Source of the DNA: an uncultured Pseudanabaenaceae cyanobacterium
GTDB lineage: Bacteria; Cyanobacteriota; Cyanobacteriia; PCC-9006; JAAUQQ01
Assembly: GCA_938021205.1 (NCBI GenBank)
Contig: CALIGI010000001.1
Location: 2,636-66,635 of the forward strand
DNA length: 64,000 nt
Direction of reading: 5' to 3'
Shown: positions 6 to 36,034 of the stretch, one piece after another
Position numbering within the stretch: the first letter of the stretch is position 1
How the letters are laid out: each line of letters opens with the position of its first letter
The notes under the pieces: generated by a model
What the model was told of the DNA's origin: nothing
Database searches by the model: none
What the model saw: only the letters and a program-made list of their open reading frames with translations
Translations under genes and position numbers: made by a program

Positions 6-908
6 TTGCCTCTGCTATACAATCGGCGGCATATGGGCGTGACCATGTTTTTGTTGGGGCTAGTCCATGTAATTGGCTTTAACCTAGCGAAAATTCCGCT
101 GTTAGATAAGATTCCCTCAATCAACAAGTTTCCGCTCAAAACGACGGGTGCCTTGACTTGGTATCACGACTTTGGCAACTTAGACCCCATCGTGAGCTTG
201 TTTGCAGGCAATACCCATTACGAATCTTTTATTCGTTTTCCCTTTGAGTCACTCGGGGTAATCGGGTTAGCCATTCTCTTTCTCATGGCGATTACCAGCC
301 ATGATTTTTGGTTGGCAAACCTGACGGCTCCCATCTGGAAAGGGTTGCACATGCTGGTGTATGTGGCCTATGCCGCCTTGGTAGGCCATGTGGTGTTGGG
401 GGCGATTCAAACCAATCGCCATCCAATTCTGACAATAATGGTGGGCTTAGGTCTGGTCTGGATTACAGCCATTCATTTGATCGCAGCATTAAGGGAACGT
501 AAGGGCGATCGCCCCGTTGCAAATGCTACGCCCGCCGTGGATAACTACGTCGAGATTGGCAGCATCAGCGAGATTCCTGACAACCGAGCCAAGATTGTTG
601 CGGTTGCGGGAGAGAGAGTTGCAGTCTTTAAATATGACGGTAAGGTCTCAGCAATTTCCAATGTTTGCCAACACCAAAATGGTCCCTTGGGTGAAGGCAA
701 AGTGATTGATGGTTGCATCACTTGTCCTTGGCATGGCTATCAATATTTGCCAGAGACTGGCGGGTCGCCACCGCCCTTTGCCGAGTCTGTGCCTACGTTT
801 AACGTGCGGCTTGAAGGCGATCGCATTTTCATCAGCACCATCCCCAATCCTCCTGGAACGCAAACACCCGCTGCTCCCATCCATCCTGGCATGGAGGGTA
901 GAGCATGA
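6..908 (+). CDS. Ferric-reductase-like transmembrane (heme b type) domain fused to a C-terminal Rieske [2Fe-2S] domain; the 5' end is probably cut by the window edge
   Basis: The ORF is open to the window start. It has several hydrophobic helices with conserved His (LGLVHVIGF, HMLVYVAYAALVGHVVLG). The Rieske ligand motif is CQHQNGPLGEG-x7-CPWHGYQY. Confidence 0.75.
   Translation: MPLLYNRRHMGVTMFLLGLVHVIGFNLAKIPLLDKIPSINKFPLKTTGALTWYHDFGNLDPIVSLFAGNTHYESFIRFPFESLGVIGLAILFLMAITSHDFWLANLTAPIWKGLHMLVYVAYAALVGHVVLGAIQTNRHPILTIMVGLGLVWITAIHLIAALRERKGDRPVANATPAVDNYVEIGSISEIPDNRAKIVAVAGERVAVFKYDGKVSAISNVCQHQNGPLGEGKVIDGCITCPWHGYQYLPETGGSPPPFAESVPTFNVRLEGDRIFISTIPNPPGTQTPAAPIHPGMEGRA
505..512. repeat. 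HIP1 octamer palindrome GCGATCGC (one example copy; the motif recurs dozens of times across the window)
   Basis: Exact GCGATCGC at 505-512. Many more copies occur, e.g. inside 10337-12619, 28025-31483 and 49097-51145. HIP1 over-representation is a known cyanobacterial signature. Confidence 0.9.
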
Positions 909-2828: not shown

Positions 2829-3587
2829 ATGTCTGAACAACTGAAGAAAATTACTGAGCATCAATGCCAGAATGCACCTAAAAATTACAGCGATTTAAAA
2901 GCTCTCTTTTTAAATTGCACATTAAATCGAACCCCTGTGCTTTCCCACACTCGCGGTGTGATTGATATCGCAAAGACTATTTTTGAAGCCAACGGCGTTC
3001 AAACAAAAGTGATTCGCCCGGTTGATTATGACATCCCTGCAGGTTTGGGGGTAGATATGTCTCAAACCGCCGAATGGGATAAGGATGACTGGCCACAACT
3101 TCAAAAAGAAGTCGATGACACTGATATTTTGGTGCTTTGTACTTCGGTTTGGTTGGGTGAAAAAAGTTCTGTCTGTAACAGAGTTCTAGAACGAATGTAT
3201 GGATACACCCACTTACTCAATGATAAGGGTCAGTACCGTGACTACGGCAAAGTTGGGGCGACATTAATCACTGGAAATGAAGATGGGATCAAACATTGTG
3301 CGATGAACATCCTGTTTTCTCTATCGCACATTGGCTACACCATCCCCCCCCAAGTCGATGCGGGCTGGTTAGGTGAGGTTGGTCCTGGTCCTTCTTACTC
3401 AGACCCTGGCTCAGGAGGGCCTGGCAATGATTTCACCAATCGAAATACAACATTCTTGGCTTGGAATTGCATGCACATGGCTCGCATGTTGAAGGATAAC
3501 GGTGGTATCCCTGGCCATGGCAACCAGCCTAATGCTTGGCAGGCAGGCTGCAAGACGGATTTCAAAAATCCCGAGCATAAAATCTAA
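2829..3587 (+). CDS. Flavodoxin-fold NAD(P)H-dependent FMN reductase family protein
   Basis: The N-terminal LFLNCTLNRTP-type flavodoxin-like start and DILVLCTSVWLGEKSSVCNRVLERM are typical of the NADPH-dependent FMN reductase / multimeric flavodoxin family. The next gene follows 25 nt downstream. Confidence 0.65.
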   Translation: MSEQLKKITEHQCQNAPKNYSDLKALFLNCTLNRTPVLSHTRGVIDIAKTIFEANGVQTKVIRPVDYDIPAGLGVDMSQTAEWDKDDWPQLQKEVDDTDILVLCTSVWLGEKSSVCNRVLERMYGYTHLLNDKGQYRDYGKVGATLITGNEDGIKHCAMNILFSLSHIGYTIPPQVDAGWLGEVGPGPSYSDPGSGGPGNDFTNRNTTFLAWNCMHMARMLKDNGGIPGHGNQPNAWQAGCKTDFKNPEHKI

Positions 3588-3612
3588 CGGTTTCATTTCA
3601 GGAATCCCAACA

Positions 3613-5577
3613 ATGTCTCAAGTAACCCATGGAGAAAAAATGCAGTGGTTCTGTGTCGCCGAGCTAGACGAACTCCCCGAAGGTCGTGTTAAAACCGTCG
3701 TTGCAGGGCATAAGAGCATTGCCCTGACCCACTACAACGATCAATACGGTGCCCTGGATAATCGCTGCCCTCACCAGGGCGGTCCCCTGGGCGAAGGCTC
3801 CATTGAAAACGGACTGCTGCGTTGCCCCTGGCATGGCTGGGACTATTGCCCCCTGACGGGGCAGCCGCCGGGAAACTTAGCTGTGGATGATTCCCTCGAA
3901 ACCTTCCCAGTAGAAGTCCGAGAAGACGGTATTTATGTTGGTCTGACAACTGAAGCCCCACACATTCGTACCGTCACTGATGTCATGGCAGAGACCATGG
4001 TTAATTGGGGCGTCACCCATGTGTTTGGCATGGTGGGTCATTCCAATTTGGGTCTCGCCGATGCCCTGCGACGGCAGGAGCTACAAGGCAATCTCACCTT
4101 CATCGGCATTCGCCATGAGGGAGCTGGAGCCTTTGCGGCCTCGGCCTATGCCAAGCTGACCGGCAAGCCTGCTGCCTGTTTGACCATTGCCGGGCCAGGC
4201 GCAACGAACCTGCTAACCGGGATGTGGGATGCCAAGGTGGATCGGGCTCCGGTATTGGCTCTAACTGGCCAGGTCAGTTCCCAAGTCTTGGGCACAGGCA
4301 ACTTCCAGGAATGCGATCTGTCTGCTGCCTTCAGCGGTGTAGCCGCCTGGAGCGGCACGGTCCTTAGCCAGAGTAAACATGCAGAGCTGATGAGCCTAGC
4401 AGTGAAGCATGCCCTGCTAGAACGCAACGTTTCCCACCTAATCTTCCCCGACGAAATCCAGACCCAGCCAGCGGGGGATGCCAAGGCCGGTAGCCCCGAA
4501 GGTCGCATCACGCCCCTGCAAATTGCACCGCCACCGGATGCCCTAGCAACTGCTGTAGAAAACCTGCAAAAGGCCAAGCGTCCCGTCATCATCGTGGGGC
4601 ACGGCGCTCGGTTCCACATGAAAGCCATTACGGCCTTGGCGGAACAGCTGAATGCGCCAGTGCTCACAACCTTTAAAGCCAAGGGACAAATCTCCGATCG
4701 CCATCCCCTAGGCTGCGGTGTCCTCGGTCGCAGTGGCACCCCCATTGCCAGCTGGTTTATGAACGAATCGGATCTACTGGTGGTCCTCGGAGCCTCCTTT
4801 TCCAACCACACCGGCATTTACCCCGGCAAGCCGATCATTCAGGTTGATTTTGATCCCTTGGCCCTGGGCAAGTTCCATCCCGTTACCGTACCCGTTTGGG
4901 GTGAGCTCAGCATCGTGGTCGAGCAATTCAAATCAGCCGTGGCAGGCAGCAATCAAGCCACGGATCAGCGGGCTGAGATTGGCGATCGCTGGAAGATCTG
5001 GCGCGAAGAAAAGCTCCGCCGCGAAGCCGACGACCGGGGCAATGGCGTCAACTCCGCCAGCATTTTCGCCGCCATGACCCGTAAGGTTCCCGCCAATGCC
5101 GTCATCTCAGTGGACGTGGGCAACAACACCTATTCCTTCGGGCGCTACTTTGAGTGCGAAGCCCAGTCAGTGCTGATGTCAGGCTACCTCGGCTCGATTG
5201 GCTTTGGCTTTGCCGGAGCTTTAGGAGCTTGGGCCGCAGCGGGGCACGAACGTCCAATTGTTTCGCTGTCCGGCGACGGTGGCTTTGGCCAATACATGGG
5301 CGACTTCAACACAGCAGTGAAGTACGAGATGAACATCACCCATATTTTGGTGAACAACAGTCAGTTGGGCAAAATCAGTAAGGAGCAGCGGGCCGGGGAG
5401 TGGGATGTTTGGCAAACATCGTTGCACAATCCCAATTTTGCCGAGTACGCCAAGATTTGTGGCGGCTTTGGCATACAGGTGACGGATCAGGCTGAACTGG
5501 ATGATGCGATCGCGGCTGCCTTGGCTTATGAGGGACCGGCGATCGTCGAAATCATTGCTGATGCTGAGCTGATTTAA
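3613..5577 (+). CDS. Fusion protein: N-terminal small Rieske [2Fe-2S] domain plus a thiamine-pyrophosphate enzyme (pyruvate oxidase / acetolactate synthase superfamily)
   Basis: Rieske motif CPHQGGPLGEG-x8-CPWHGWDY. TPP N-domain: VTHVFGMVGHSNLGLADAL, IRHEGAGAFAASAYAKLTGKPAACLTIAGPGATNLLTG. TPP-binding motif: GDGGFGQYMGDFNTAVKYEMNITHILVNNSQLG. I chose the ATG at 3613 because the track ORF start at 3502 overlaps the upstream gene. Confidence 0.8.
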   Translation: MSQVTHGEKMQWFCVAELDELPEGRVKTVVAGHKSIALTHYNDQYGALDNRCPHQGGPLGEGSIENGLLRCPWHGWDYCPLTGQPPGNLAVDDSLETFPVEVREDGIYVGLTTEAPHIRTVTDVMAETMVNWGVTHVFGMVGHSNLGLADALRRQELQGNLTFIGIRHEGAGAFAASAYAKLTGKPAACLTIAGPGATNLLTGMWDAKVDRAPVLALTGQVSSQVLGTGNFQECDLSAAFSGVAAWSGTVLSQSKHAELMSLAVKHALLERNVSHLIFPDEIQTQPAGDAKAGSPEGRITPLQIAPPPDALATAVENLQKAKRPVIIVGHGARFHMKAITALAEQLNAPVLTTFKAKGQISDRHPLGCGVLGRSGTPIASWFMNESDLLVVLGASFSNHTGIYPGKPIIQVDFDPLALGKFHPVTVPVWGELSIVVEQFKSAVAGSNQATDQRAEIGDRWKIWREEKLRREADDRGNGVNSASIFAAMTRKVPANAVISVDVGNNTYSFGRYFECEAQSVLMSGYLGSIGFGFAGALGAWAAAGHERPIVSLSGDGGFGQYMGDFNTAVKYEMNITHILVNNSQLGKISKEQRAGEWDVWQTSLHNPNFAEYAKICGGFGIQVTDQAELDDAIAAALAYEGPAIVEIIADAELI

Positions 5578-5800: not shown

Positions 5801-6769
5801 CTAAGGACCATTCTCTAGGATGTCTTGGAGTATTTCGCGAATACTGCGAGGCTGCCAACCTAGCTCTTGCTGAGCTTTAGCGGCATTCACACGCACGCAA
5901 CGATCATAAATATAATGAACTCGCTCTCGGCTCAGCAATGGATTAATCGAGAGCGCACGTCCAATGGGATCTAGGAGATTTCCCAGAAGTCGTACCAAGA
6001 ATTTAGGGGGCTCTTGGGGGACAGACACTTTGGTTTTCTCACCCAACATTTTAAACATTTCGGTGGTGGAGAGCTCCCCAGCAGAAATGATGTAATGCTC
6101 TCCAGAGGGGCCTTGCTCAGCAGCTAGGAGCATGGCACTAACCAGGTCATCTACATGAACAATACCGGTGATGCGATCGCCCCCCGGCCAAAATTTAAGC
6201 TTCCCATTGAGGAACAACCGAATGACAGGCCCAAAATGAGGATCACCTGGCCCGAAAATCCCCACGGGCATCACGCTCACCGTCGGTTGCCCCTGGGCCG
6301 CTGCTGCATCCACCAGTTGCTGGGCCTCGTATTTCGTGCGATCGTAGGCGGAGGAAAAATCGCGCTGGGTTCGCACGAAAGTCTCATCCACAGCGATTCC
6401 AGCAGTATCGCCATAAATCCCAATGGTGCTGCAATAGACCAACTTGGGCATGGGAGACATCTGGGCCGCAGTTTCCAGCACAGCCTTGGTGCCTTCCACA
6501 TTAACCTGGGTCATTCGCTCCGCATCAACCAGACCTAGATCAACATAGGCGGCTGTGTGAAACACCACGGCCACATCTGCCATGGCTTGCTTTAAAGCAG
6601 TGTGATCGGTGATGTCACCATAGACAAATTGGGCGCTCGTTTGGGAGAGGCGATCGCGGTTAGGGCTGGACTGTCGAACCAGCGCAATAACCTGATCACC
6701 TCGGGCTTCCAAGGCCTTGACTAAATGAGACCCGGTGAAGCCACTGGCCCCTGTTACTAGCACTTTCAT
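5801..6769 (-). CDS. NAD-dependent epimerase/dehydratase family SDR (possible 3-keto reductase)
   Basis: Rossmann motif MKVLVTGASGFTGSHLV and catalytic YxxxK (YDRTKY). Its start overlaps the upstream stop (ATGA at 6766-6769). Confidence 0.85.
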   Translation of the reverse strand: MKVLVTGASGFTGSHLVKALEARGDQVIALVRQSSPNRDRLSQTSAQFVYGDITDHTALKQAMADVAVVFHTAAYVDLGLVDAERMTQVNVEGTKAVLETAAQMSPMPKLVYCSTIGIYGDTAGIAVDETFVRTQRDFSSAYDRTKYEAQQLVDAAAAQGQPTVSVMPVGIFGPGDPHFGPVIRLFLNGKLKFWPGGDRITGIVHVDDLVSAMLLAAEQGPSGEHYIISAGELSTTEMFKMLGEKTKVSVPQEPPKFLVRLLGNLLDPIGRALSINPLLSRERVHYIYDRCVRVNAAKAQQELGWQPRSIREILQDILENGP

Positions 6770-7902
6770 AGAGCTTTTTCGTAAATGCGGTAGGTTTTAT
6801 AAATCTCAGCGCCACCGGATTCAATCAGTTTTCGCGATGCCATGTTGTCTTCAAAAACCCAAGAGAGTTCGGCTCGCTTGTAGCGTTTTCCGTTCATCAG
6901 TCCCCCTTTCATGCCTAAATAAATCACGGCGATGGGGACCATCTTGCGGCGATATTCTGGCAGAGAGCAAATCGCTACAACCCGGGCTTGATCAATTCTT
7001 CGCTTGTACCAGAGAAATTTCAGCAGGCCCAAACCCTTGAGCTTTCCGTTCTTCATCGATCGCTTCAAGGGCAAATTGGCATCCGGTAGACCCATAAACA
7101 GGCCCACCATCCTACCTTGGTCTTCAGCAATGATAAAAATATCGGGATCGACGATGGCTTTGAGCTCCTGGGCCTCAGCTAAAAACTCCGCTTCGGTGCG
7201 GGGAGTCGAACTCCAGTTATCCGAAAAGGCTGTTGTGAATAGCTGATACAGATCGCGACAATCCTGTTCAAATCCTTCGCCTTTAACCCGTAGAGAGCGA
7301 AAGGTGACCCCAGACTTTTGGGCAATGTGGTAGCCTCGCTCGAACTTGCCATAGGACTCTTCATCCAGGAGCCAGTTGTAAGCGTAACTATCTTTAGCTT
7401 TGTGCAGACCCACCTGTTCCATTAAATCGCCATAGTAAGGCGGGTTATAGGGCATCATCACCCTGGGAGGTGAGTCAAAACCATCAATGAGAAAAAAGCA
7501 GCCGTTGTGGGTCGAGAGATTGATGGGGCCACGGATCTGGGTCATGCCTCGATCGCGTAACCAATCACCAGCAGCCTCAATTAATGCTGACGCAACTGCT
7601 GGGTTCGCTACAGACTCAAAAAAACCAAAGAGTCCAATTTTCTGGTTTTCTCGTTCTATCAGTCGCCTATTAATTGCTGCAACAATGCGACCAACGGTTT
7701 GGTCACCCTCTAGCGCAATAAATTGCTGTAACTGCCCGTATTCGAAGAAGGGATTTTCGGCTGCAAAATTTTTGGCCACGCTGCTGGTGAAGGGAGGAAC
7801 CCAATGGGGGTCATCTTTGTAGATGAAGGCAGGCAGCTCTAGGAAAGCCTGCTGGTCAGACCTTGTCGTGACAGCCTTAATTTGAACGGGAGTCTGCACC
7901 AT
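6766..7902 (-). CDS. GNAT-like (acyl-CoA N-acyltransferase fold) protein of uncertain substrate
   Basis: 378 aa. The N-terminal region (RSDQQAFLELPAFIYKDDPHWVPP ... MMPYNPPYY) recalls a family usually annotated as N-acetyltransferase. It is co-operonic with the AOS and SDR genes. The fold assignment is from memory of the family and is not verified. Confidence 0.55.
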   Translation of the reverse strand: MVQTPVQIKAVTTRSDQQAFLELPAFIYKDDPHWVPPFTSSVAKNFAAENPFFEYGQLQQFIALEGDQTVGRIVAAINRRLIERENQKIGLFGFFESVANPAVASALIEAAGDWLRDRGMTQIRGPINLSTHNGCFFLIDGFDSPPRVMMPYNPPYYGDLMEQVGLHKAKDSYAYNWLLDEESYGKFERGYHIAQKSGVTFRSLRVKGEGFEQDCRDLYQLFTTAFSDNWSSTPRTEAEFLAEAQELKAIVDPDIFIIAEDQGRMVGLFMGLPDANLPLKRSMKNGKLKGLGLLKFLWYKRRIDQARVVAICSLPEYRRKMVPIAVIYLGMKGGLMNGKRYKRAELSWVFEDNMASRKLIESGGAEIYKTYRIYEKAL

Positions 7903-8002
7903 GACTTATGGGGAAGAAGAGAAGGGATAGGGACATGCCATGTCATGCCCCTAGGGGGATATCAAGATAGCAGAATGACAGGCCTAATCAACGCCCCGCG
8001 AC

Positions 8003-9289
8003 CTAAGCCATCACTTTCACAGCAGGGCTAAAGAGCTTTTCCCGGACTGCGACCATGCCACTGACCAACTGCTCAATTTCTGCCTCGGTATGGAGGGCAT
8101 TGGCAGTAATGCGGAGGCGAGGTTTGGCAACAAACCAAATGGGAGACACCCACAGCTTGTATTCTTCCATCAGAGCCCGAGCAAAGCTCTTGGGATCTAG
8201 CTCCGGTGGCAAGATGACGGGAATCACATTGGTTTCGCCGATGGCCTCAAAGTCAGCCTTGGCTAACTGCGATCGCAGATAGCGCGTATTGTGCTGGAGC
8301 TTAGCTACCTGCTCGGGATATTGACGCACTTGGCGAATGCTCTCTAGGGCAGAGGCCGTGACGGGCGGTGGCAAAGAAATCGTGCCAATCGAGGTAGGAC
8401 AGATATCGAGCAGGTCGATGAGCTCACGGTTGGGGGCGCTAATGGCCGCCCCAGCGGACCCGGCAAACTTAGAGAAGGTGGTCATAATAATGGGCACTAG
8501 GCCCCGATCTACCACAGACTGAGGCGTAATATTAAAGTGCTCATAGATACCGCCACCCTTGGCTCCAATTGCACCACTGGCATGGGCTTCATCCATGACA
8601 ACGAGGCTGCCGGGATACCTCTCCATAATATCGAGCATCTCAGGTAGAGGCACAATGTCTCCATCCATGGAGAACACGGCATCTGAGATGACGATGATGC
8701 GATCGCCCGGTTTGGCATGACGCTCTAGTTTCTGAGCCAAGTTGGCCATGTCGCAGTGGCGATAGGCCTTGACCCGTACCTTGGGGCTGTGGCTAAACAT
8801 CTTGCCCGAGCGGTTGGTGGCATTAGTCACAGCCGAAATAATACAGCCATGATTCAGCACATCCGTGAGAATCAGGGTCTCTCGTTCATGGCAAAAGCCA
8901 GGAATAGGCATGGCCAGATGGCAGAAACCATCAACCAAAGCCTGCAACGCCATCCAAGCATTCATGAAGAGATGGGTGTGAGGCAGGTGTTTAAAAGCGG
9001 AGATCTCCTGCTCTAGTTGACGATGGAGATCAATACGACCACTGAGAACGGAACAAGAACTGTTGGAGGTTCCATATTGCTCAATCGAGGCGATCGCAGC
9101 TTGCTTAACCGCTGGATGTTGTGCCAAGCCCAAAACATCATTCGTACAAAATGTAAGTACATTATGATACTGACCCGTGGATGCCTCCTCAATTTCAAAT
9201 TGATTGCCATGCTTTTGATGGCAGATAAATTTGTCGGGATACAAGCCACTTGCATGCCATTGGCGCATGTAATCGTTAATGACGTCCAA
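8003..9289 (-). CDS. PLP-dependent alpha-oxoamine synthase family enzyme (BioF/Kbl/Spt/CqsA/CapB-like)
   Basis: Family motifs are NDVLGL, LNHGCIISA, SMDGD, DEAHASG and the PLP-lysine motif TFSKFAGSAG. The glycine-rich loop is atypical (GTSNSSCSVLSGR). The protein is 428 aa. Confidence 0.85.
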   Translation of the reverse strand: MDVINDYMRQWHASGLYPDKFICHQKHGNQFEIEEASTGQYHNVLTFCTNDVLGLAQHPAVKQAAIASIEQYGTSNSSCSVLSGRIDLHRQLEQEISAFKHLPHTHLFMNAWMALQALVDGFCHLAMPIPGFCHERETLILTDVLNHGCIISAVTNATNRSGKMFSHSPKVRVKAYRHCDMANLAQKLERHAKPGDRIIVISDAVFSMDGDIVPLPEMLDIMERYPGSLVVMDEAHASGAIGAKGGGIYEHFNITPQSVVDRGLVPIIMTTFSKFAGSAGAAISAPNRELIDLLDICPTSIGTISLPPPVTASALESIRQVRQYPEQVAKLQHNTRYLRSQLAKADFEAIGETNVIPVILPPELDPKSFARALMEEYKLWVSPIWFVAKPRLRITANALHTEAEIEQLVSGMVAVREKLFSPAVKVMA

Positions 9290-9746
9290 AATATTCTCCT
9301 TTCACGTATCTCGGGTAATCCTGACTCGACGGCTCAATTCTTAAATCTTACTTAACAGATGAACGCGCAGAACTAAGGTACCAGCTTGGTGCTATCAAAG
9401 CCCTATTGTGAGCAATGTCCATATTGCCTTATCCGCAGCGCACATTGGTTTTGCATCATTCAAGATTTAAAATGCAAAGCGGTGGTAAGGCTGAGAGAGA
9501 CGATTAGGAATGCCTTTCCCAAATCTCATTCGACTAACGCCCAATTCTAGAGCATTGCTGGGGGTGGGGGATAGCTTACCAAACGTTTCTGAAGCCTAGG
9601 AAAAGAAAAGCAGCTAAGGGACCTCTAAGGATTTAATCATCCTCTTTCAACCGATGAACCTTGCACTGCTGAGCCATATCTGATGAGTTCGCCAGAGCGA
9701 AGCTGCCCTCACCTTGGTTAGCCTGAATCAGGCCAACCAGCCTCTA

Positions 9747-9850
9747 GCCCCTAGCCCCTCTCCCTGGGGAGAGGGGAATATGAAAGGCTCTGAAACAGAC
9801 TGCTGGCTTCGGTTCCCCTTCTCTCTTGGGAGAAAGGGTTAGGGGATTCT
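9747..9850. repeat. MITE-like palindromic repeat family A, full copy
   Basis: ctagcccctagcccctctccctggggagagggg ... ggttccccttctctcttgggagaaagggttagggg. It has two internal hairpins and long-range inverted termini. It is about 85-90 percent identical to 47127-47235. Confidence 0.8.
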
Positions 9851-10056
9851 CCATCGAGAATGGAGTTGGGGTAAGCCTTATATTCATCGGTGACGTAGAA
9901 AAAGCACTTCCACGCACCGACAATTTCCCATAAAAGCTCGAAGGTCTGGGCACTATGATCTCCCACGACCCAAGCTAAGAGGCCAGGCTGGAACCTCGAC
10001 GAATTACCGTCCGCAATCGAGAAAAATGTGATTTTTTTTGCTTCGACTCTTCTCAT
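9851..10056 (-). pseudogene. IS1-like transposase fragment, truncated by the adjacent MITE
   Basis: LLAWVVGDHSAQTFELLWEIVGAWKCFFYVTDEYKAYPNSI resembles the central part of cyanobacterial IS1-family transposases. The N- and C-terminal parts are missing and the reading frame runs into MITE sequence. Confidence 0.45.
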
Positions 10057-10152
10057 TTTTACGGATATAGTGTGACTTGCATTCTGGGCAATTCATCGCT
10101 TTTTAACTCCTAAGTCATCCCTCAATGATGCAACGCCTTCTATTTCCTTAGT

Positions 10153-10370
10153 ATGAATTCATCAGCGAAGCGTGGGTCATCAGCGAAAGCTTATTCTCTT
10201 GATCTGCAACAGAAACTAGTCGAAGCGTATTCGCAAGATGGCATCTCCCTACGGAAGCTTGCTCAACAACTTGGAGTTGCGGCGCACTTCGTTCAAAAGC
10301 TACTGAAGCAAGCTCGCAAGACGGGTAGCCTCACTCCTAAGCTCCGAACTTCCCCAACGCCGACCAAGCT
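10153..10370 (+). pseudogene. IS630/Tc1-family transposase N-terminal HTH fragment
   Basis: [51 protein letters not shown] matches the typical IS630 N-terminus. There is no DDE domain, and the ORF tail runs antisense into the 3' end of the ATPase gene. Confidence 0.5.
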
Positions 10371-12619
10371 CGAAACTTTCGTAACCTTAGGGCATTGGTC
10401 ACCACTGACACCGAGCTAAAAGCCATTGCTCCTCCAGCAATCATGGGATTGAGCAATAGGCCAAACGCAGGGTAGAGAATTCCCGCTGCGACAGGAATTC
10501 CAATGATGTTGTAGATAAAAGCAAAAAAGAGGTTCTGGCGAATATTAGCGATCGTGGCCTTGCTGAGCTGGATGGCAGTGACGACGCCTTGGAGGTCGCC
10601 GGATATGAGAGTGATGTCGCTGGCAGCGATCGCCACATCGATCCCCGTCCCAATTGCTATACCCACATCAGCTTGAGCCAATGCTGGTGCATCGTTAATG
10701 TCATCTCCTACCATGGCAACCCGCTGACCCTGATCTTGCAGACGCTTAACCTGGGCCGCTTTTTCTGCGGGACGAACTTCGGCTAGGACGCGCTCAATGC
10801 CAACAGCCTTGGCGATCGCAGCAGCAGTCTGAGGGTTATCCCCCGTCAGCATCACCACCTCCAGCCCCATGTGCTGCAACTGTTGTACAGCCTGAACCGA
10901 GGAAGGCTTCAGGGTATCGGAAATACCGACTAAACCCTGTACATCGCCATTCACCGCAATCCAAGCCGTGGTCTTCACCTCAGATTCCCATTGCATGCGC
11001 TGTTGCTGCAGCATCTGAGTCTCGATGCCCAGACTCTGCATCCAGCGCTCCGTGCCAATTTGCACGAGTGAGGCCTGGCCTTGAACTATGACATGGCCTT
11101 CCACAGCTCGACCGGTGACCGCCTCAAAAGCGGTCACGCTGGGTAGCGCTTGGTGATTCACACCTTGGGCTTCGGCGTACTGCATAACAGCTTCGGCAAG
11201 GGGATGCTCAGAATTGTGTTCCACCGCAGCGACGAGGATGAGCAGATGGGTGCTAGCTCCTTCGAGGGTGAAGTAGTTCGTGACGGTTGGCCTGCCTTGG
11301 GTGAGAGCTACAGTTTTATCTACAACAATAGTTTGCAGCTTGTGGGCTTTTTCTAAACTGTCTGCCCCCTTAATCAAAATACCGTTCTCAGCTCCCTTGC
11401 CCGTGCCCACCATGATCGAGGTGGGAGTTGCCAAACCCAGGACACACGGACAGGCAATGATCAGCACGCCAACGGTGGTGAGTAAGGCCAGACTCATGTT
11501 GCCCGTAGCGTTGAACCAAATGACGAAGGTGAGCATAGCGATCGCCATTACCACCGGCACAAACCAACCCGTCACCTGGTCCGCCAGCTTCTGAATGGGG
11601 GCTGTGGAGCCCTGTGCATCTTGCACCAGCTGGACAATTTGGGCCAGCATTGTGTCTTTACCCACGCGGGAGGCTCTGAATTTGAACCGCCCCGTTTTAT
11701 TGATCGTCGCCCCAATCACCTCATCTCCCACCGTTTTTTTGACCGGTAGAGATTCCCCCGTAATCATCGACTCTTCCACGGTGGAACGACCCTCTACCAC
11801 CTCGCCATCCACGGGCACCTTTTCCCCCGGACGCACAATCACGACGTCACCCACTATCACCTGCTCCAGCGGCAGATCGATCTCCTGGCCATTCCGCACA
11901 ACCCTAGCGATCCTAGCCTGGAGCCCTATCAACTTGCGAATTGCATCGGAGGTTTGCCCCTTAGCACGCTCCTCAAAGTAACGACCTAGCAACAGCAGGG
12001 CAATAATAACCACCGCTGCTTCGTAATAAACATCCGGGGCGAGTCCCTGGGTGCGGAGCAGACCGGGGAAAACGGTCACAACCACTGAATAGAGATAGGC
12101 CGCTCCCGTCCCCAAAGCAATTAGCGTATTCATATTGGCAGCGCGGTGGCGCAAGGCCTTCCAAGCTCCCCCATAAAACGACTGACCACACCAAAACAAA
12201 ACGGGGGTTGCTAATACAAGTTGAAGCCAGGAATTGTGTAAGAACATTGGCCAGCCGGGGATGTCAATGCCCAGCATCATCGGCAATGTACCTAGCACTA
12301 GCAATATACCAACAGCACCGCTGATCATGACTTTTTTGAGCAGAGCTTGCTGGGTCAGGCGGCGATCGCGCTGTTCCTGGGCATCTACAGCCCCGCTATC
12401 CAGCTCGTTCAGCGGTTGGGCTTGGTAACCTGCATCCACAACCGCTTGCTGGATGGCTTCTACATTGGTGGCGCGATCGTTATATTCCACACTGGCCTGG
12501 GCTGCCGCAAAATTAACCTGGGCCAGGGTGACCCCCGGTACCTGCTGAATTGCAGACTGGACACCATTGGCACAAGAGGCACAGCTCATGCCCTTGAGTT
12601 TTAAGGTTGCTAAGGCCAT
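10337..12619 (-). CDS. Cu(I)-type P1B heavy-metal-translocating P-type ATPase with non-canonical phosphorylation and hinge motifs
   Basis: HMA domain GMSCASC, TGES, and the CPC in TM6. YN ([11 protein letters not shown]) and MxxSS ([10 protein letters not shown]) indicate the Cu(I) P1B-1 class. SEHPLA and MLTGDN are present. DKTGT reads DKTVALT, and GDGINDAP reads GDDINDAP. Confidence 0.9.
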
Positions 12620-13309: not shown

Positions 13310-15883
13310 ATGAGTAGGGCACTTGATTTGAGCTTGCTTTCACAAATTGGTGATGCAGATACTCGTATCCTCATCGGTAGTTCTGGTGATGATACCCTCG
13401 AGGGTAATTCTCGGGATAATTATATCTCTGGGAAAAGGGGAGATGACTTGCTTCTAGGAGATCTAGGAGACGACATTCTCAGTGGCGGCAGAGGTCATGA
13501 CACCCTTAGAGGCGGAGAAGGTGATGATTTTCTAAAGGGAGGTAGAGGTGATGACTTGCTTGAAGGCGGAGAAGACGATGACATTCTCAAAGGAGGTAGA
13601 GGTGATGACCTTCTCCGGGGGGGGCAAGGCAATGACCTCCTTCAGGGGGGCAGAGGCTACGATATTTTAGATGGAGGAGAGGGCATCAATGTCTATCGTG
13701 GGGGAAGGGGAGCCGACACTTTCGTGATTGGTGCTGACAATAGCTTCAATACCATTCAAGACTTCAAGCTGAATCAGGAAGACAGCTTAGCTTTGAATGG
13801 TGACTTGTCCGTAGATGACCTTTCATTTGTTGATTTTGATGGCGGGACAATCATTGAGGCTCAGACAGGAGGAGAGATTGCATTCCTCTCCAATGTCTCG
13901 GCTGACACCGTCCGTGACAATGTAGATACCATTTTCACCACTGTTGCAGCAGAAACACTATCCGTAACATTCGGTGACATTACCCTCCCAGAAACCATCG
14001 ATTTTGGTGCCGCTGGTTCTGTCACCCTTGAGGTGACCAACAGGCTGGGGCAAGCTTTTTCCGGCCCAGTCAACCTTGAGTTGTTCATCTCCACAGATGA
14101 CGATCGCGACTCTATCAGTGATGAACGCAATGATGGTCTACTTCGTCAACTCGCGGTGGATGTCAACCTAGCAGCTGGAGAAACGACCACAATTGAGGTT
14201 GACTACGAGAATATTTCCTCTGCGGTTGCTCCTGGCTCCTACTATCTCCTGGCCGGAGTTGAAGGGGGGCAACTCGCCAGTGAATTAGTGTCAGCAGAAA
14301 ATTCGAATTCGGTCTTAGCTTGGCATGCCACTGCACTCAACTCCGTTCAGGAATTTGGCGAAGATGATCCCAATGGGATTGGGATTCAACCAACAACAGG
14401 CTCCAGGGCACTGGGTATTGTCCAAACTGCGGTTTTCAATGCCGCGAATGCTTTTGATGGTGGCTACGAATCCTATCTCGGCTTTGACCCAGGTACACCG
14501 ACTGAGGGGGCTTCTGTCGATGCGGCAGTTGCAGGGGCAGCTATCACTGCGCTAGCAAGTGTCTTCCCAGCAAATGAGGCCTTTGCCAATCGACTAGTCA
14601 CCCAACTAGAACAGAGCTTGGACCTGAATCGAAATCAGGTCGAGAGTTTGTTCGCTGCTAGTGGCCTCGAAAGCATCCTCGGAGAAATCACGCCAGGAGA
14701 AGTGGTGCCATTTTTTGCATCACCCTTTCTGGGCAGCGCTCCTGATGTTCCGGTCGATGCTACAGCTGATGTCTCTGCTTCAATCTTGGATGGTTTCTTA
14801 CTAGGCATCAATGCAGCCAGCCAAATCATCGATGCTCGCGCTGATGATGGCTATGTTGATTTCTTCCAAGGACCAGATGATCCCGGTAGCTATGACCAGG
14901 CTGGAGTTTTCGAGGACTACACTTGGACACCTGAAATTCCACTCAGCCCGACAACTGGGGAACCGATCTTTGGTGACACTCCCTATGCTCGTAGCCCTGG
15001 CTGGGGAACGATCAGAACCTTCTCTGGCAATAGCGTTGAGAACTTCCTCAATGATGCTGGGATTGACCAGAACGGTGACGGAAACAACTTAGACGGCCGT
15101 CCCTTTGCCAATGCGATTGACCCGGTGGTCGGCAGCTTCCAGAGAAATCTATATGCCACTGAAATCGAGCAAGTGCGAACACTGGGAGGCCTGGAAAGCA
15201 CTGATCTAACCAATATCACTCGTTCTCAAGACCAGACGGATGTTGCTATTTTCTGGTCCTTTGACCGCCAAGATACCTTCCGCCCCTATGGTCATCTGCA
15301 CCAAATTGCTCAAGAAGCCGCATTCCGTCAGGGTGCTGATTTAATTGAGAGTGCTCGGATTTTAGGGCTAACTGGTATTGCATTAGCGGATGCAGGTATC
15401 ACAGCCTGGAATCAAAAGTACGCTGAGGCACAGCCACGTCCAGAGGATGTTATTTCTGGTGACAGTCAAGGCGTGGCGATCGCAGAAATTGATGGCCTGG
15501 ATCAGACCATTGCCGATCCAGACTGGCAACCCTTGCTGCTGGATCCTCCATTCCCTGATTATCTCTCAGGCCACTCCACGTTTGGTGGTGCATTTGGTGG
15601 CGTCTTAGATACGCTCTTCCCGGATGCGACCAATATTCAAGTGGTGTCCCAAGACATCATTCCAGGTAACGGTATTTTCGAAACCTCCAATGATGAGCTG
15701 TTCAATATCGACGACTTCAACCCCGTTCGCATTTTTGAGAGCTATGCCGAGATTGGAGCAGAAGATGCTGTCAGCCGCCTGTTTGCGGGTGTCCATGTCC
15801 TAGAATCTACCCAAGATTCTGTGATTGTCGGTTCTGACATTGGTCGGTTTGTAGCTAGCAATTTGCTGGCACCCGTTGTTTAG
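13310..15883 (+). CDS. Large multidomain protein: N-terminal RTX (hemolysin-type Ca-binding) repeats, a CARDB-like middle region, and a C-terminal PAP2 / vanadium-haloperoxidase-superfamily domain
   Basis: More than 8 nonapeptide repeats (GGRGDDLLEGGEDDDILKGGRGDDLLRGGQGNDLLQGGRGYDILDGGEG). PAP2/VHPO motifs are KYAEAQPRP, YLSGHSTFGGA and SRLFAGVHVLES. GSRALGIVQTAVFNAANAF is a helix typical of the VHPO-like N-domain. Confidence 0.8.
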   Translation: MSRALDLSLLSQIGDADTRILIGSSGDDTLEGNSRDNYISGKRGDDLLLGDLGDDILSGGRGHDTLRGGEGDDFLKGGRGDDLLEGGEDDDILKGGRGDDLLRGGQGNDLLQGGRGYDILDGGEGINVYRGGRGADTFVIGADNSFNTIQDFKLNQEDSLALNGDLSVDDLSFVDFDGGTIIEAQTGGEIAFLSNVSADTVRDNVDTIFTTVAAETLSVTFGDITLPETIDFGAAGSVTLEVTNRLGQAFSGPVNLELFISTDDDRDSISDERNDGLLRQLAVDVNLAAGETTTIEVDYENISSAVAPGSYYLLAGVEGGQLASELVSAENSNSVLAWHATALNSVQEFGEDDPNGIGIQPTTGSRALGIVQTAVFNAANAFDGGYESYLGFDPGTPTEGASVDAAVAGAAITALASVFPANEAFANRLVTQLEQSLDLNRNQVESLFAASGLESILGEITPGEVVPFFASPFLGSAPDVPVDATADVSASILDGFLLGINAASQIIDARADDGYVDFFQGPDDPGSYDQAGVFEDYTWTPEIPLSPTTGEPIFGDTPYARSPGWGTIRTFSGNSVENFLNDAGIDQNGDGNNLDGRPFANAIDPVVGSFQRNLYATEIEQVRTLGGLESTDLTNITRSQDQTDVAIFWSFDRQDTFRPYGHLHQIAQEAAFRQGADLIESARILGLTGIALADAGITAWNQKYAEAQPRPEDVISGDSQGVAIAEIDGLDQTIADPDWQPLLLDPPFPDYLSGHSTFGGAFGGVLDTLFPDATNIQVVSQDIIPGNGIFETSNDELFNIDDFNPVRIFESYAEIGAEDAVSRLFAGVHVLESTQDSVIVGSDIGRFVASNLLAPVV

Positions 15884-28024: not shown

Positions 28025-31000
28025 TTAAGCCCCCGTCACAGCCATTTTCTGCTTCAGTAATTGAGTGGCCGTATTGAGCAACTCATAGTCCGTGTAGGGC
28101 TTGCTGAGAAATTCTTCTGCGCCCAGCTCCAGCGCAAGCTGGCGGTATTTGCCACCACTGCGGGACGTGAGAATCGCGATGGGAACGCCCGCGATGCCTT
28201 CGATGCTGCGGCTCTGGCTCAAGAACTCAAAGCCGTTCATGCGGGGCATTTCTAGGTCGCAGAAGATCAAGTCCACATCGGCATTCTTTTGCAAGCTAAC
28301 CATGGCATCGAGGCCATCTTCTGCTTGGATGACTTCGTAGCCAACACCTCGGAGGGTACGTTCCAGGGTGCGGCGCTGGGTGAGGGAGTCATCAATAATG
28401 AGAATGCGGGGAGCACGATCCTCTGTCGGTTGAACCTGATCTGTTGTCTCGCGACGCCGGAGAGTGACGCTGCTGGCTTGGCTACCCGTTTCGCAAACTT
28501 GCTCCAGCAACAAGCTGGGTTCAATGGCCAAAGCCAAGTGAGCATCACCCAGAACCGTACAGCCCTGGATATAAGCTGGCGGCGCGATAGTAGCCCCCAT
28601 AGCGCGGATAGATAACTCCTGCTCGCCCAAGACCTGATCGACTTGGATGCCTCGCAGGCCATCACTACAGGAAACCAACAGCACGGGCTGCATCACCACA
28701 GCATCACCATCATTGCTCGCTGTGGGGGGATGGGCGTAGTCCACTAGCTCCGAGAGGTTGAGCACCGGAATAATGGAATCTTCATCGCCCTGACGCAGGG
28801 TCAAAACCTGTCGGCCATCGCTGAGGATGCGCAGTTGCTCGCCGCGAGGCAGGAGCACCTGCTCGATCGCATCGGCGGCGATGGCATAGGTGGTGCCTTT
28901 GCTGCGACAGATCAACTGCTTGGTGATGGTGACGGCGAGGGGGAACTGGAGGATAAAGCTGGTCCCTTTTCCAGGCTCAGAGCGAATCGAGAGGTTGCCA
29001 TCTAGAGCTTCGATTTGGGAGCGCACCACGTCCAAGCCCACGCCCCGACCGGAAAGGTCGCTGACGGCGGCGGCGGTGGAGAAGCCGGAGTGGAACATTA
29101 ACTCCAACAGTTGCCCTTCGGTAACATCTTCCACTTCTGTGGCGCTGAGCAATTCCTGGGCGATCGCTTTCTCAGCAATACGTTCTAAATTGACACCCTT
29201 ACCATCATCGCGAATCTCGATCACCGTGCGATTGCCCTGCTGATAAGCCGAAAGCTCAACCCGCCCCTTAGGGGACTTGCCTGCAGCTTGGCGTTCTTCT
29301 GGGGTCTCAATACCATGATCGAAGGCATTGCGAACCAGATGCAATAGGGAGTCGTAGAGGGAGTCTAGGGTGACCTTATCGATCAGGACATGCTTGCCAA
29401 AAAGACCCAACTCCACCTGCTTACCGTAGGTCGTACTCAGTTGCTGTAGCACCCGAGGGAAGCGCTGGAACAGTTCTCCCACGGGCTTGAGGCGAACAGA
29501 AGCCAGGTCGTCACGGAGTTGACGAAACAACCGCTGGCGACCATCACAAATCTGTTGATTCTGCTTGGTTTGCTGCTCCAGAGCTTCAATCACGATCTCC
29601 AGCTGGACGGACTCATTCAGCGCTTTTTGAGTGACGATGTGGAGATCGCTGTAGCGGTCCATTTCTAAAGCATCGAACTGCTCACTCAGGGCCACTTGGG
29701 GCGGCAAGTGAGGAATCGCAGGGGCGGGCTTGGCATTCGATTTTTGGGGATAGCGCGCAATGCTAGCCAGGGCATCGGCATCACGCTGGGCCTTGGAGAA
29801 ACCCCACTCGTCTGTGCCACCTTGCTGGACCGCTGTTTGCAGGTCGCTGAGGGTCCGGCGGTGGGTCCGCAACTGGGCAAGCAGCTCCAGAATGCCTTGG
29901 CGCAGTTGATCATCTTGTTCAGAAGACTGAATTTGATTGGTGAGCAGTTCACCCACGAGGTGATCTAGGCGTAGCACCTGGTCTAGGCCTACGCGCATGG
30001 TCACCTTAGATTCTCGCCCCCGGCTGAGCTTAGTAGAGCTTGAGGCAATCAGGGTGGCTGCTTTGGAACTGCGACGGGCTTGGGGCGTTGCCGGTGTACT
30101 GGCGGCGGGTGACTTTGCGGCGGACTGCGCCTGGGACATGGCAATAGCAGCAGCGGTACCAGCGAGACTGGGCTCCGGTGCCATAGGTTCCTCAACCTTG
30201 TCAGCCGCTGTTTGCGTTAGAGCAACTTCCGGGGTGGCTTCTGCTTCTTCACGGGACGTAACGGTGTCTGCAATAGTCGTTGATTCAACCTCGCCAAACA
30301 GATCATCTAGGTTGGCTAGGGGAGCATCAATGGTCTCTGGAATACCTAGCGCTTCGGGACTTTCCCCCATACCCATAGGACTGGGAGCCATGGCGGTTGC
30401 CCCCGTAGCAGATAAATCTGGCACAGTGACATCTTGCTCTTCATCATCGAGATCGCCAAATAGCGACTCCAATTGACCGTCTAGCATGTCGGGGATGTCA
30501 GCAGAATCATCACCAGCAGTTAAGCCTGCCGCGACCGGTTCCTGAGGTGTAATCGCCGGTATGACTTCACCAATGCCACCAAAGAGGCCTTCCAATCCGC
30601 CAATGTCAAGATTGTCGGGCAGGTTGCTAGGAATATCCGTTGCTGCAACACCAGCATCGGTGATGTTGTTGGCAGCCATGCCGACTCCACTATTGCTAGC
30701 TTCGGAGACTAAGGCTATCAATGTCTCGGAAGGCTGACCACCCTGCTCGCGATCGCCCTCCAGAACTAATTGCTGCCCAGCCCGCAGGTCCTCATAGGAC
30801 TGTTGTAACAGCGCCAAATGACCCGGCTGACTGGCTAGGCCATCCAGGGTAATCTGGGCAATGCTACCAAAGCCCGGCAGTTGCAAAGATTCTGCTAGGC
30901 CCAAAAAGACTTCACAGGTCGTTTGTAGCGTTGTGGCAATCTCGTCGGGGTTAGCACCATCTGCCAAGGCCGTTTGCAGCGTATTGAGACGCTGCTCCAC

Positions 31001-31483: not shown

Positions 31484-31538
31484 GGCGGCAGGAAAGGAGA
31501 GGGCGGGAAGAGTCGGGGCTTGGAAGAGAGAGTCTTAA

Positions 31539-31669
31539 CGTAGGTTGGGTTGAGGCTTCCGAAACCCAACAGGTTCAGGTAGTAGCTTTGTCTCGTTAGG
31601 GTTGAAGCATGAAACCCAACAAGCTTGAGCTTGGGCCTGTTGGGTTTCATGCTTCAACCCAACCTACGA
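31539..31669. repeat. MITE-like repeat family C forming a 23-bp stem hairpin inside the chemotaxis operon
   Basis: cgtaggttgggttgaggcttccgaaacccaaca (31539-31571). gggttgaagcatgaaacccaaca (31599-31621) pairs perfectly with tgttgggtttcatgcttcaaccc (31639-31661). Confidence 0.8.
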
Positions 31670-31690
31670 GTTACCGATCGCGGGGTTTGG

Positions 31691-34600: not shown

Positions 34601-34933
34601 AACCGTAATAAATTTGCTGTTGTCGCCGGCCATTGCTGGATATCCTTGTTGATTCTGACCTTGACTGTTTTGAGTGGCAGACTGGGGTGAATAGGTGCGA
34701 TCGCCGCCGTTTTGACGCAGGTTCTGAACGTAATTCCCCGTCGGATCCGCCTCAACTGAAGCAGCACTGGACGGAGTCTTGCTGGCCGGTAGTTGGGGGC
34801 GGTTGGGATTGGTGGCTTGGGGCAGTTCACCTTCGTCATAGACAAAAACCTCTTGGAGGCGATCGTCGATTTTCTGGGAGTCGCCCACGTTAGAAGTGGA
34901 CTCAGACTGGGGACGGCGTTGGAAAATTTTCAT
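31691..34933 (-). CDS. Soluble methyl-accepting chemotaxis protein with three GAF domains, PixJ/TaxD-like
   Basis: Three GAF cores (DRVIFYRC..., CDRAVIYQC..., CDRAVIYKF...). The C-terminal MA domain contains [38 protein letters not shown]. No TM segment is present. Confidence 0.9.
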
Positions 34934-34961
34934 GACAATGGACTTCGCAGGAAGCTAGGCG

Positions 34962-35603: not shown

Positions 35604-35607
35604 AGCA

Positions 35608-35973: not shown

Positions 35974-36034
35974 GATCAAAATTGAGAAACGATTGAAAAA
36001 GCAAGTTGTGAGTAGATGAGCGGGCTTTAAGCCT

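Follow-up and report, generated by a model that had tools for sequence, protein, structure and literature searches.

A cyanobacterial operon that pairs a bCerS-family acyltransferase with a non-Spt alpha-oxoamine synthase: a candidate route to ceramide-like lipids

Can a cyanobacterium assemble a ceramide-like lipid with a condensing enzyme that is not Spt? The question is raised by a stretch of 64,000 nt from contig CALIGI010000001.1 of an uncultured Pseudanabaenaceae cyanobacterium (hereafter the window), whose list of open reading frames (ORFs) holds three co-directional minus-strand genes: an alpha-oxoamine synthase (AOS), a 378-aa acyltransferase and an extended short-chain dehydrogenase/reductase (SDR). 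An original prediction, made from the letters of the window, had proposed that this trio is a ceramide-type module of an AOS, a bCerS-like acyltransferase and a CerR-like reductase. Our analysis supports that reading: the AOS lies outside the BioF clade, a contig bearing the same trio carries a canonical BioF as well, and the acyltransferase and the SDR show similarity to bCerS and CerR, respectively, and co-occur with the AOS in other cyanobacteria. We consider it probable that the trio is an operon for a ceramide-like lipid, namely an N-acylated long-chain 2-amino-3-hydroxy compound made by a three-step pathway. A genuine serine-derived ceramide is one form that this product could take, with somewhat less than an even chance.

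The operon and its condensing enzyme

The AOS gene (8003-9289, minus strand) encodes a pyridoxal phosphate (PLP)-dependent protein of 428 aa and begins with a TTG codon; a GGAG lies 7 nt upstream of this start, and orthologues align from residue 1. It is followed, after a spacer of 100 nt (7903-8002, minus strand, from the ORF coordinates and the sequence), by the acyltransferase gene (6766-7902, minus strand) and then by the SDR gene (5801-6769, minus strand), which encodes 322 aa. The last two genes are joined by an ATGA stop/start overlap at 6769-6766 on the minus strand, which can be read directly from the sequence around it (GCTCTATGAAAGTG). The original prediction had described three minus-strand genes with coupling through ATGA at 6766-6769, and both parts of that description are correct: the ORF coordinates are exact and the overlap is visible. 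Moreover, all of the motifs that it quoted for the AOS and the SDR, GASGFTGS and YDRTK included, are found in the translations.

The AOS matches Aminotran_1_2 in Pfam (PF00155, E 4e-37) and its translation carries TNDVLGL, GTSNSSCSVLSGR, SMDGD, DEAH and TFSKFAGSAG. In an alignment with SpSPT, E. coli BioF and Kbl, the catalytic Asn, the stacking His, the Asp-x-x-His, the PLP Lys of TFSK and the carboxylate-binding C-terminal Arg are all kept. The same alignment reveals three insertions peculiar to the clade (11, 12 and 7 aa), a C-terminal loop that is shortened, and NAW in place of SG[F/Y]. The enzyme falls below the cutoff of every NCBIfam AOS model, scoring 234 bits on bioF (TIGR00858; cutoff 426), 204 on Kbl (cutoff 460), 176 on Spt CFB (cutoff 640), 151 on Spt beta (cutoff 500) and 113 on Spt alpha (cutoff 670), with further scores of 185 bits on ALAS and 89 on CqsA. 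For calibration, a true Spt reaches 807 bits with the model of its own family and 315 bits with that of bioF, the latter being more than the 234 bits of the window AOS. On the Spt-CFB model (SerpalmtaseCFB), the AOS partners of two bCerS homologues, described below, reach 565 bits (L090) and 470 bits (P0305).

Across cyanobacteria, the AOS proteins of the trio form a clade of 421-431 aa whose members are 68-81% identical to each other. Their identity to Spt, Kbl, E. coli BioF and the Spt-like partners is 24-33% (87-157 bits), with the window AOS sharing 24-28% with bona fide Spt; the non-trio references share 29-39% among themselves (~150-285 bits), or 35-39% (~200-285 bits) when the E. coli BioF-Spt pairs are set aside. 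By BLASTP, the nearest relatives of the window AOS are canonical cyanobacterial BioF proteins (e.g. P0522 and P0404), at 31-33% identity and 150-164 bits. These BioFs were fetched with a made-up consensus-like bait, and solely the real database proteins retrieved were used. They are 380-417 aa long, carry the NCBI name 8-amino-7-oxononanoate synthase and score 465-467 bits on TIGR00858 (467 for P0522, against the cutoff of 426). On a contig of 5,303,543 bp, P0522 lies at 2.03 Mb and a complete trio (L174) at 3.28 Mb, 1.2 Mb apart, and the AOS of this trio scores 242 bits on the bioF model. Because the canonical P0522 shares the contig with it, the trio AOS is a second AOS and not the BioF of the genome.

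Neighbour-joining (NJ) trees separate the same groups, with bootstrap values of 100% for the clade of 425-428-aa AOS proteins, 100% for canonical cyanobacterial BioF and 97% for Spt plus the Spt-like proteins. The window AOS stands outside the last of these clades, which unites Spt with the AOS partners of bCerS homologues. In a first tree, before the cyanobacterial BioFs were added, the AOS clade had been placed beside E. coli BioF and outside the Kbl/Spt group (100%). These are rough trees with few references, in which separate clades are visible and the position of the long branch is not reliably placed. A sequence of R. capsulatus HemA that fit PDB 2bwn imperfectly (679 bits) was excluded from them. 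PGAP gives the AOS orthologues a generic name, and a tblastn search against 72,556 plasmids returned no orthologue, every match being below 35% identity.

Taken together, these comparisons place the AOS in a cyanobacteria-only, long-branch and fast-evolved lineage that is neither an Spt orthologue nor a canonical BioF. An Spt identity was rejected, given that the enzyme fails the three Spt models and stands outside the NJ clade of Spt and Spt-like proteins. In this respect the original prediction did not hold: it had called the AOS Spt/CapB-like, and what we find is an orphan long-branch clade with 113-176 bits on the Spt models and 109 bits to the cysteate-C-fatty-acyltransferase structure 28eh. 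Its refuting case, an AOS inside the BioF clade and the sole bioF of the genome, did not arise: the score is 234 bits against 426 and P0522 sits on the contig of the L174 trio.

The acyltransferase and the reductase

Family databases are next to uninformative for the middle gene. In Pfam, the 378-aa protein matches Acetyltransf_1 weakly and in its C-terminal half, and neither Pfam nor NCBIfam holds a bCerS model, so that bona fide orthologues receive zero families; no match was found among PDB sequences. An AF2 model from a 34-sequence alignment (pLDDT 72, i.e. moderate confidence; pTM 0.69) folds into two beta-alpha GNAT-like halves. The best Foldseek matches to this model are tandem-GNAT proteins, namely 2wpw, 3tt2, 5kf1 and the mycothiol synthase MshD (2c27), with E 2.6e-12 to 6e-11 and TM-scores of ~0.52-0.58. 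The predicted structure is that of a tandem GNAT, with two consecutive GNATs per chain.

Our comparison rests on YghO, ECD_02852 and Sphingomonas proteins as stand-ins for CCNA_01212 (bCerS) and CCNA_01222 (CerR), the reference proteins that reportedly come from Stankeviciute et al. 2022. By BLASTP, the acyltransferase is 31% identical to E. coli BL21 YghO across 377 aa (E 1e-62) and 31% identical to a protein of the S. koreensis spt cluster (E 2e-53), and these two proteins share 42% identity with each other. A profile of the cyanobacterial homologues scores both of them at ~201-208 bits. In the literature, yghO (ECD_02850) is the orthologue of CC_1154, and ECD_02852 that of CC_1164, i.e. CerR (PMC9386255).

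The same family is found where sphingolipid genes are clustered. An S. paucimobilis SPT sequence, verified to be identical to PDB 2jg2, was used to fetch 80 Sphingomonas spt loci, and in 61/80 the cyanobacterial profile matches an ORF of ~385-400 aa (E ~1e-59 to 1e-65 among the hits listed). In the loci examined, this tandem-GNAT ORF lies ~6-7 kb downstream of spt. The S. koreensis locus reads SDR, acyl carrier protein (ACP), spt, (kinase), lptF, lptG, (one unassigned ORF) and tandem GNAT. These are the same parts in the order of the Caulobacter cluster, which runs CC_1164 cerR, CC_1163 acpR, CC_1162 spt, CC_1156/55 lptF2/G2 and CC_1154 cerS (PMC11324152). Full-length homology marks the window acyltransferase as a member of the bCerS/YghO (CC_1154) family, as had been predicted, and suggests that it acts as an N-acyltransferase. 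A separate observation concerns E. coli BL21(DE3), in which NC_012971 2989282-2997066 (L093 24282-32066) carries yghO, a fatty acyl-AMP ligase, an epimerase, an ACP, spt, lptG and lptF. This is a complete annotated sphingolipid-type set, in which RefSeq labels the bCerS orthologue merely 'protein YghO'.

The third protein is, by sequence, an extended SDR of the NAD(P)-dependent epimerase/dehydratase or 3beta-hydroxysteroid dehydrogenase type (PF01370, Epimerase, E 9e-42; PF01073, 3Beta_HSD, E 5e-33). It has VTGASGFTGS at residues 5-14 (TGxxGxxG) and YDRTK (YxxxK), and carries no N-terminal extension ahead of the Rossmann motif. Its nearest NCBIfam models, all below cutoff, are HpnA (190 bits), SdmB (135 bits, full length) and OleD (107 bits). 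The SDR in the CerR position of S. koreensis has the same three top models, and for the SDR of the L090 operon HpnA comes first, with OleD and SdmB within the top four. The threonine-dehydrogenase model is absent among the best 25 of the 69 families that match the window SDR. In direct comparisons, the SDR is 34% identical to that of L090 (E 2e-24), 28% identical across 220 aa to the E. coli BL21 CerR orthologue ECD_02852 (E 7e-17) and 27% identical to the Sphingomonas CerR orthologue (E 3e-9). It would thus be a distant relative of CerR at best: the original prediction was correct about the epimerase/dehydratase family, and its likeness to CerR holds weakly. We presume that the protein is a 3-ketoreductase because of its context, that is, its ATGA coupling to the acyltransferase gene and the rank of GNAT-SDR as the most conserved adjacency.

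The trio in cyanobacteria and its links elsewhere

The trio order with the GNAT-SDR overlap recurs in seven other cyanobacterial loci. Intact copies are carried by Mastigocladopsis repens, Trichocoleus desertorum, a Leptolyngbya-like genome, a Synechococcus PCC 73xx strain and contig_25 of ERZ26692383; three inserted genes divide the trio of Gloeothece verrucosa. Overlap or adjacency of the GNAT and SDR genes is present in most homologous loci, and the arrangement of the trio is not due to chance. We further scored neighbours within 6 kb in 45 metagenomic loci, each of at least 9 kb and centred on an acyltransferase homologue. An SDR orthologue was present in 33/45 and an AOS orthologue in 23/45, with both in 19/45. 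The AOS was absent in about half of the loci, and 8/45 had neither neighbour. Co-occurrence of the trio across cyanobacteria, which the original prediction had anticipated, is therefore seen both in the seven further loci and in the 19/45 with all three genes, and the linkage is strong but not obligatory.

The search with the acyltransferase gave 2576 matches, the best 120 of which are ~60-70% identical; among these 120, all named sources, the query's own entry aside, are cyanobacterial. The best 120 AOS homologues are 70-81% identical. Genera with homologues include Leptolyngbya, Trichocoleus, Coleofasciculus, Mastigocladopsis, Calothrix and Lyngbya, and also Hormoscilla, Spirulina, Gloeothece, Richelia and Microcoleus.

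A Rieske/VanA_C oxygenase gene lies directly upstream of the AOS in 18/23 AOS-containing metagenomic loci. It is part of an extended cluster of ~10 genes around the trio (L002 272-14541; L174 1-12407; L089 8143-17954; L095, L116, L157, L159 and L161), whose members are Amidohydro_2, Mpo1-like, FA_hydroxylase, GH3 (OlsH-like), MFS, Rieske (SdmA-like), AOS, GNAT, SDR and a DevA/DevC-like ABC system. Occasional extra members are an OlsC-like hydroxylase, a Cupin_8/JmjC protein and a GDSL lipase. The ABC/FtsX pair is divergently oriented. The accessory proteins find their best curated models among lipid enzymes, with every score below cutoff: the Rieske protein hits SdmA, a 4beta-methylsterol monooxygenase (239 bits, full length); the GH3 protein hits the lyso-ornithine-lipid synthetase OlsH (100 bits; for OlsH see PMC12493201); the Asp_Arg_Hydrox protein hits the acyl hydroxylase OlsC/LpxO (260 bits); the ABC pair hits DevA and DevC; and the GDSL protein hits the lysophospholipase PlaA. 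Several of these families are linked to sphingolipid or aminolipid modification, and the extended cluster suggests that a lipid is tailored and sent out to the cell envelope. A short contig from a soil metagenome has a weakly AOS-like ORF of ~479 aa (L166 1723-3159, minus strand) that is convergent to an acyltransferase homologue. It scores 90 bits with BioF and 60 bits with the window AOS, and may be another condensing-enzyme partner.

Lastly, an exhaustive profile search for the tandem-GNAT family identified 8319 representatives at E <= 1e-3 and 1459 at E <= 1e-30. Among the best 150 representatives there are AOS::tandem-GNAT fusions (P0305, 780 aa; P0322, 777 aa; P0340) and a tandem GNAT fused to a fatty-acyl-AMP-ligase-type AMP-binding domain (P0348, 940 aa; L006 10001-12823). 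In L005 (10001-12343), an SDR gene overlaps an AOS::GNAT fusion gene and a PAP2 gene comes next. A metagenome-assembled genome (L090 8814-13249) has an operon of an AOS (Spt-CFB-like), a tandem GNAT, an MGDG-synthase-type glycosyltransferase and an SDR, which looks like a compact glycosyl-ceramide operon. Through such fusions and operons, condensation, N-acylation, keto-reduction, fatty-acid activation and head-group addition are tied into one pathway. Fusions of PilZ, which binds cyclic di-GMP (c-di-GMP), to a tandem GNAT (P0261 and P0324) hint at c-di-GMP control of the acyltransferase family in some bacteria.

The window holds the core trio only; the Rieske/VanA_C, GH3, FA_hydroxylase, Mpo1-like, Amidohydro_2, MFS and FtsX accessory genes are absent from it. 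In L087, the closest relative, whose AOS is 81% identical to that of the window, the AOS start is preceded at a distance of 13 nt by the end of a Rieske/VanA_C oxygenase gene. The window shows no detectable remnant of a Rieske gene, and the extended cluster may have been truncated upstream of its AOS. The region 5′ of the AOS (9290-9750, minus strand) is non-coding, without an ORF, and is the presumed promoter region of the operon. Beyond it, at the upstream boundary (9751-10419, no strand assigned), short ORFs at 9751-10056 (minus strand) and 10153-10419 (plus strand, weak HTH_58) resemble insertion sequence (IS)/transposase remnants; they take the place that the Rieske/VanA_C gene has in L087. 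Promoter-like matches in 9290-9750 were no commoner than in shuffled sequences, and the promoter/terminator scan of 5.4-10.5 kb as a whole stayed at chance level, with no terminator-like site in the spacer at 7903-8002. An Rfam scan of the same 5.4-10.5 kb gave nothing above chance and no Rfam family in 9290-9750. Its c-di-GMP-II riboswitch match at 7588-7670 (minus strand), inside the acyltransferase coding sequence, has 24 bits against a gathering threshold of 53.5 (E 0.09) and is almost certainly due to chance.

Rieske domains occur twice elsewhere in the window. Downstream of the operon, an ORF at 3502-5577 (plus strand, 691 aa) has a Rieske [2Fe-2S] domain N-terminal to a complete thiamine pyrophosphate (TPP) enzyme with N, M and C domains, and another at 6-908 (plus strand, 300 aa) fuses a ferric-reductase-like membrane domain to a Rieske domain. 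Both resemble the Rieske oxygenase of the extended cluster solely through that domain. Unrelated to the trio are an RTX-repeat protein of 857 aa (13310-15883, plus strand), a large C-terminal part of which is without a family match, and a chemotaxis-like cluster (28025-37258, minus strand) of a CheA-type hybrid kinase, a GAF-containing methyl-accepting chemotaxis protein (MCP) and response regulators.

Proposed pathway, alternatives and known systems

Going by the chemistry of its family, the AOS would join an alpha-amino acid to a fatty acyl thioester in a decarboxylative Claisen condensation, releasing CO2 and leaving a long-chain alpha-amino ketone. Acyl-ACP is the probable acyl donor, this being the form in which cyanobacteria activate fatty acids. 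The YghO/bCerS-family tandem GNAT would then, from its homology, put a second acyl chain on the amine; condensation would precede N-acylation because the AOS needs a free alpha-amine. The extended SDR would reduce the 3-keto group with NAD(P)H, before or after this acylation. Alanine, which would lead to 1-deoxy bases, is as thinkable as serine for the AOS because of its presumed descent from a BioF-like ancestor. Since the AOS is a separate lineage nearest to canonical cyanobacterial BioF, the pathway resembles a bCerS-based module into which another condensing enzyme has been recruited, and it is probable that the cyanobacterial phylum arrives at a ceramide-like lipid along a partly independent route. 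A wider reading is conceivable but doubtful, namely that many cyanobacteria have unrecognised sphingolipid-like envelope lipids assembled independently of Spt. Here a BioF-derived AOS, possibly using alanine or another non-serine substrate, might provide 1-deoxy or atypical bases to the bCerS-family enzyme and the SDR. The products might then be hydroxylated by the SdmA-like Rieske and the OlsC/FA-hydroxylase types and exported by the DevCA-type ABC system.

Several points weigh against a ceramide-like product, which we infer. The window AOS has low identity to bona fide Spt and lies outside the clade that unites Spt with the AOS partners of other bCerS homologues, the matches of the SDR to both CerR orthologues are weak, and the metagenomic loci in which the AOS, or both neighbours, are absent belong here too. 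Moreover, a tblastn search of the 64-kb window with the ACP and the fatty acyl-AMP ligase of E. coli BL21 found neither. To our knowledge, experimental data exist for very few members of the tandem-GNAT family, and function may differ between its branches. Ceramides are rarely reported in cyanobacterial lipidomes, and Nostoc punctiforme has none (PMC8895605). Belton et al. 2022 (PMC8895605), the one study devoted to the question, detected no sphingolipids in Nostoc punctiforme, concluded that it makes none, and obtained no 3-ketosphinganine from its BioF-type AOS, which they called the sole AOS of the genome. Their tree comprised AOS sequences of 313-409 aa and, because of this range, missed the clade of 421-431 aa. 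Since the enzyme was of the BioF type and the tree was limited to these lengths, the Nostoc negative does not bear on the trio AOS clade. Two ceramide-type lipids have been reported in cyanobacteria, from Scytonema julianum and Moorea producens (PMC8895605). The view that cyanobacteria are not recognised sphingolipid producers, as the original prediction put it, must therefore be amended as far as lipids are concerned; genes for sphingolipid synthesis are not known to have been described in the phylum.

The same three steps might instead yield a small diffusible or specialised metabolite, i.e. an N-acylated alpha-amino ketone or alcohol in which the acyl or the amino-acid part is short or unusual. 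We regard this as a minor possibility. The long branch, three insertions and altered motifs of the AOS are consistent with a changed substrate, the distribution in cyanobacteria is patchy with variable gene arrangements, and the Rieske oxygenase, amidohydrolase, GH3 ligase, MFS efflux and cupin/JmjC companions are of a natural-product type. There is also precedent in CqsA and SxtA, AOS enzymes that make signals or toxins. However, proteins that remain 65-80% identical across distant cyanobacterial orders are more like those of a conserved cell function, and the accessory genes resemble those for lipid modification and for a glycolipid exporter of the DevCA type. A signal-type product is further opposed by the 89 bits on the CqsA model and by the lack of a sensor kinase partner in the window. 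Less probable again is that the genes are neighbours and not one pathway, with the GNAT and SDR (and the SdmA-like Rieske of the relatives) modifying a different lipid of polycyclic or hydroxylated type, a hopanoid for instance, and the AOS acting separately. GNAT-SDR is indeed the tightest pair and is without an AOS in about a third of loci, and the best models, HpnA and SdmB for the SDR and SdmA for the Rieske protein, recall the sterol C4-demethylase pair. Yet all three scores are far under their cutoffs, and HpnA, OleD and SdmB are also the models nearest to the SDRs in CerR position of true sphingolipid clusters. In other bacteria, AOS::GNAT fusions and AOS-GNAT-SDR operons bind the three activities together, and the Rieske gene is directly upstream of the AOS in 18/23 AOS-bearing metagenomic loci.

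It is very improbable, and largely refuted already, that the AOS is the BioF of the organism, or a Kbl that works with the SDR as an SDR-type threonine dehydrogenase (Tdh). bioF and Kbl are the best NCBIfam models (234 and 204 bits), cyanobacterial BioF is nearest by BLASTP, and SDR-type threonine dehydrogenases do exist and pair with Kbl. Against this, the scores are about half of the cutoffs, a true Spt outscores the window AOS on the bioF model, PGAP names the orthologues generically and a BioF above cutoff shares a contig with a trio. Moreover, the SDR has no threonine-dehydrogenase model among the best 25 of its 69 matches, and a bCerS-family acyltransferase in the operon has no role in either pathway. 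We give slightly less credence still to a capnine or sulfonolipid-type pathway, in which a CapB-like AOS would join cysteate and a fatty acyl thioester, with CapC-like reduction by the SDR and then N-acylation. Here the enzyme classes are identical, and L088 has a nearby PALP-family gene that could in principle be a source of cysteate. This gene, however, is found in 1/39 metagenomic loci of at least 12 kb, with a weak score (37 bits), and is absent from the window, and in the PDB search 28eh ranks below Kbl, Spt and ALAS. We know of no capnine-type sulfonolipids from cyanobacteria. On these scores and partners, the Kbl/Tdh, CqsA-type and capnine-type readings were rejected, and a ceramide-like lipid remains the reading that we prefer.

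We found no description of a cyanobacterial bCerS homologue or of the 421-431-aa AOS clade in the literature outside the supplementary lists of two survey papers. Predictions of sphingolipid potential in bacteria already span about 40 phyla, and the addition of another is therefore incremental. The available part of the supplements of Ding et al. 2024 (PMC11334938) contains no cyanobacterial entry and no sequences. The trio offers a testable lead on cyanobacterial envelope lipids through its non-Spt condensing enzyme, its breadth and conservation, and its tailoring and export cluster. If a ceramide-like product is confirmed, these would be candidate genes for the sporadically reported cyanobacterial ceramides, and a major photosynthetic phylum would join the bacterial sphingolipid producers. 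It would also mean that the bCerS acyltransferase can work with a non-Spt condensing enzyme, making this the second known instance in which ceramide synthesis was put together independently. Searches by similarity to Spt would overlook organisms that bear the trio, which is of relevance to the reading of sphingolipid and 1-deoxysphingolipid signals in environmental lipidomics.

How, then, does the trio relate to known systems? With CapB/CapC and CqsA/LqsA it has in common the logic of an AOS plus a reductase. The similarity of its AOS to CapB and CqsA (109 bits for 28eh, 89 for the CqsA model) is below that to BioF, Kbl and Spt, and the window has neither a cysteate synthase nor a CqsS-type sensor. 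The SdmA/SdmB pair of sterol C4-demethylation, with its Rieske protein and 3beta-HSD-type SDR, resembles the Rieske protein of the relatives and the SDR of the window. It differs in that both scores are far under cutoffs of 600 and the Rieske gene is absent from the window, and an AOS and an N-acyltransferase between the Rieske and SDR genes have no role in sterol demethylation. Canonical cyanobacterial BioF (P0522, P0404 and Npun_R3567 of PMC8895605) is a PLP fold-type I AOS with the same catalytic residues as the window AOS. However, it is shorter (380-400 aa) and passes TIGR00858, whereas the window AOS has 428 aa, three insertions and other genomic partners.

Closer are the clusters and fusions of uncultured bacteria (L005 and L090; P0305, P0322 and P0340), for which 'Spt-like clade B' (Ding et al. 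2024, PMC11334938) is the comparison. Their acyltransferase is nearer to that of the window (37-39%) than the proteobacterial one is, the window SDR has its closest relatives outside cyanobacteria among their SDRs (34%, E 2e-24), and the gene order AOS-GNAT-(X)-SDR is shared. Unlike the window AOS, theirs scores 470-565 bits on SerpalmtaseCFB, groups with Spt at 97% and is clearly Spt-like, and they carry head-group genes (PAP2, glycosyltransferase) that the window trio does without.

The Spt-bCerS-CerR module itself (CC_1154 / CCNA_01212 / YghO; CC_1164 / ECD_02852) has the three enzyme classes clustered as they are in the window. The window N-acyltransferase is a full-length homologue of its counterpart there, and the SDR has the same Pfam family and the same nearest models as SDRs in CerR position. 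The module differs in that the window AOS is not Spt and the SDR is at best remote from CerR. From these comparisons, the trio would work like Spt-bCerS-CerR but is no Caulobacter-type module: one of its three proteins, the acyltransferase, is a member of the corresponding family, the AOS is not, and the SDR is an uncertain candidate. The Rhodobacteria-type dedicated ACP (AcpR) and acyl-ACP synthetase (AasR), and also lptF2/lptG2, do not occur near the window trio; its cyanobacterial relatives carry a GH3 ligase and a DevCA-type exporter instead.

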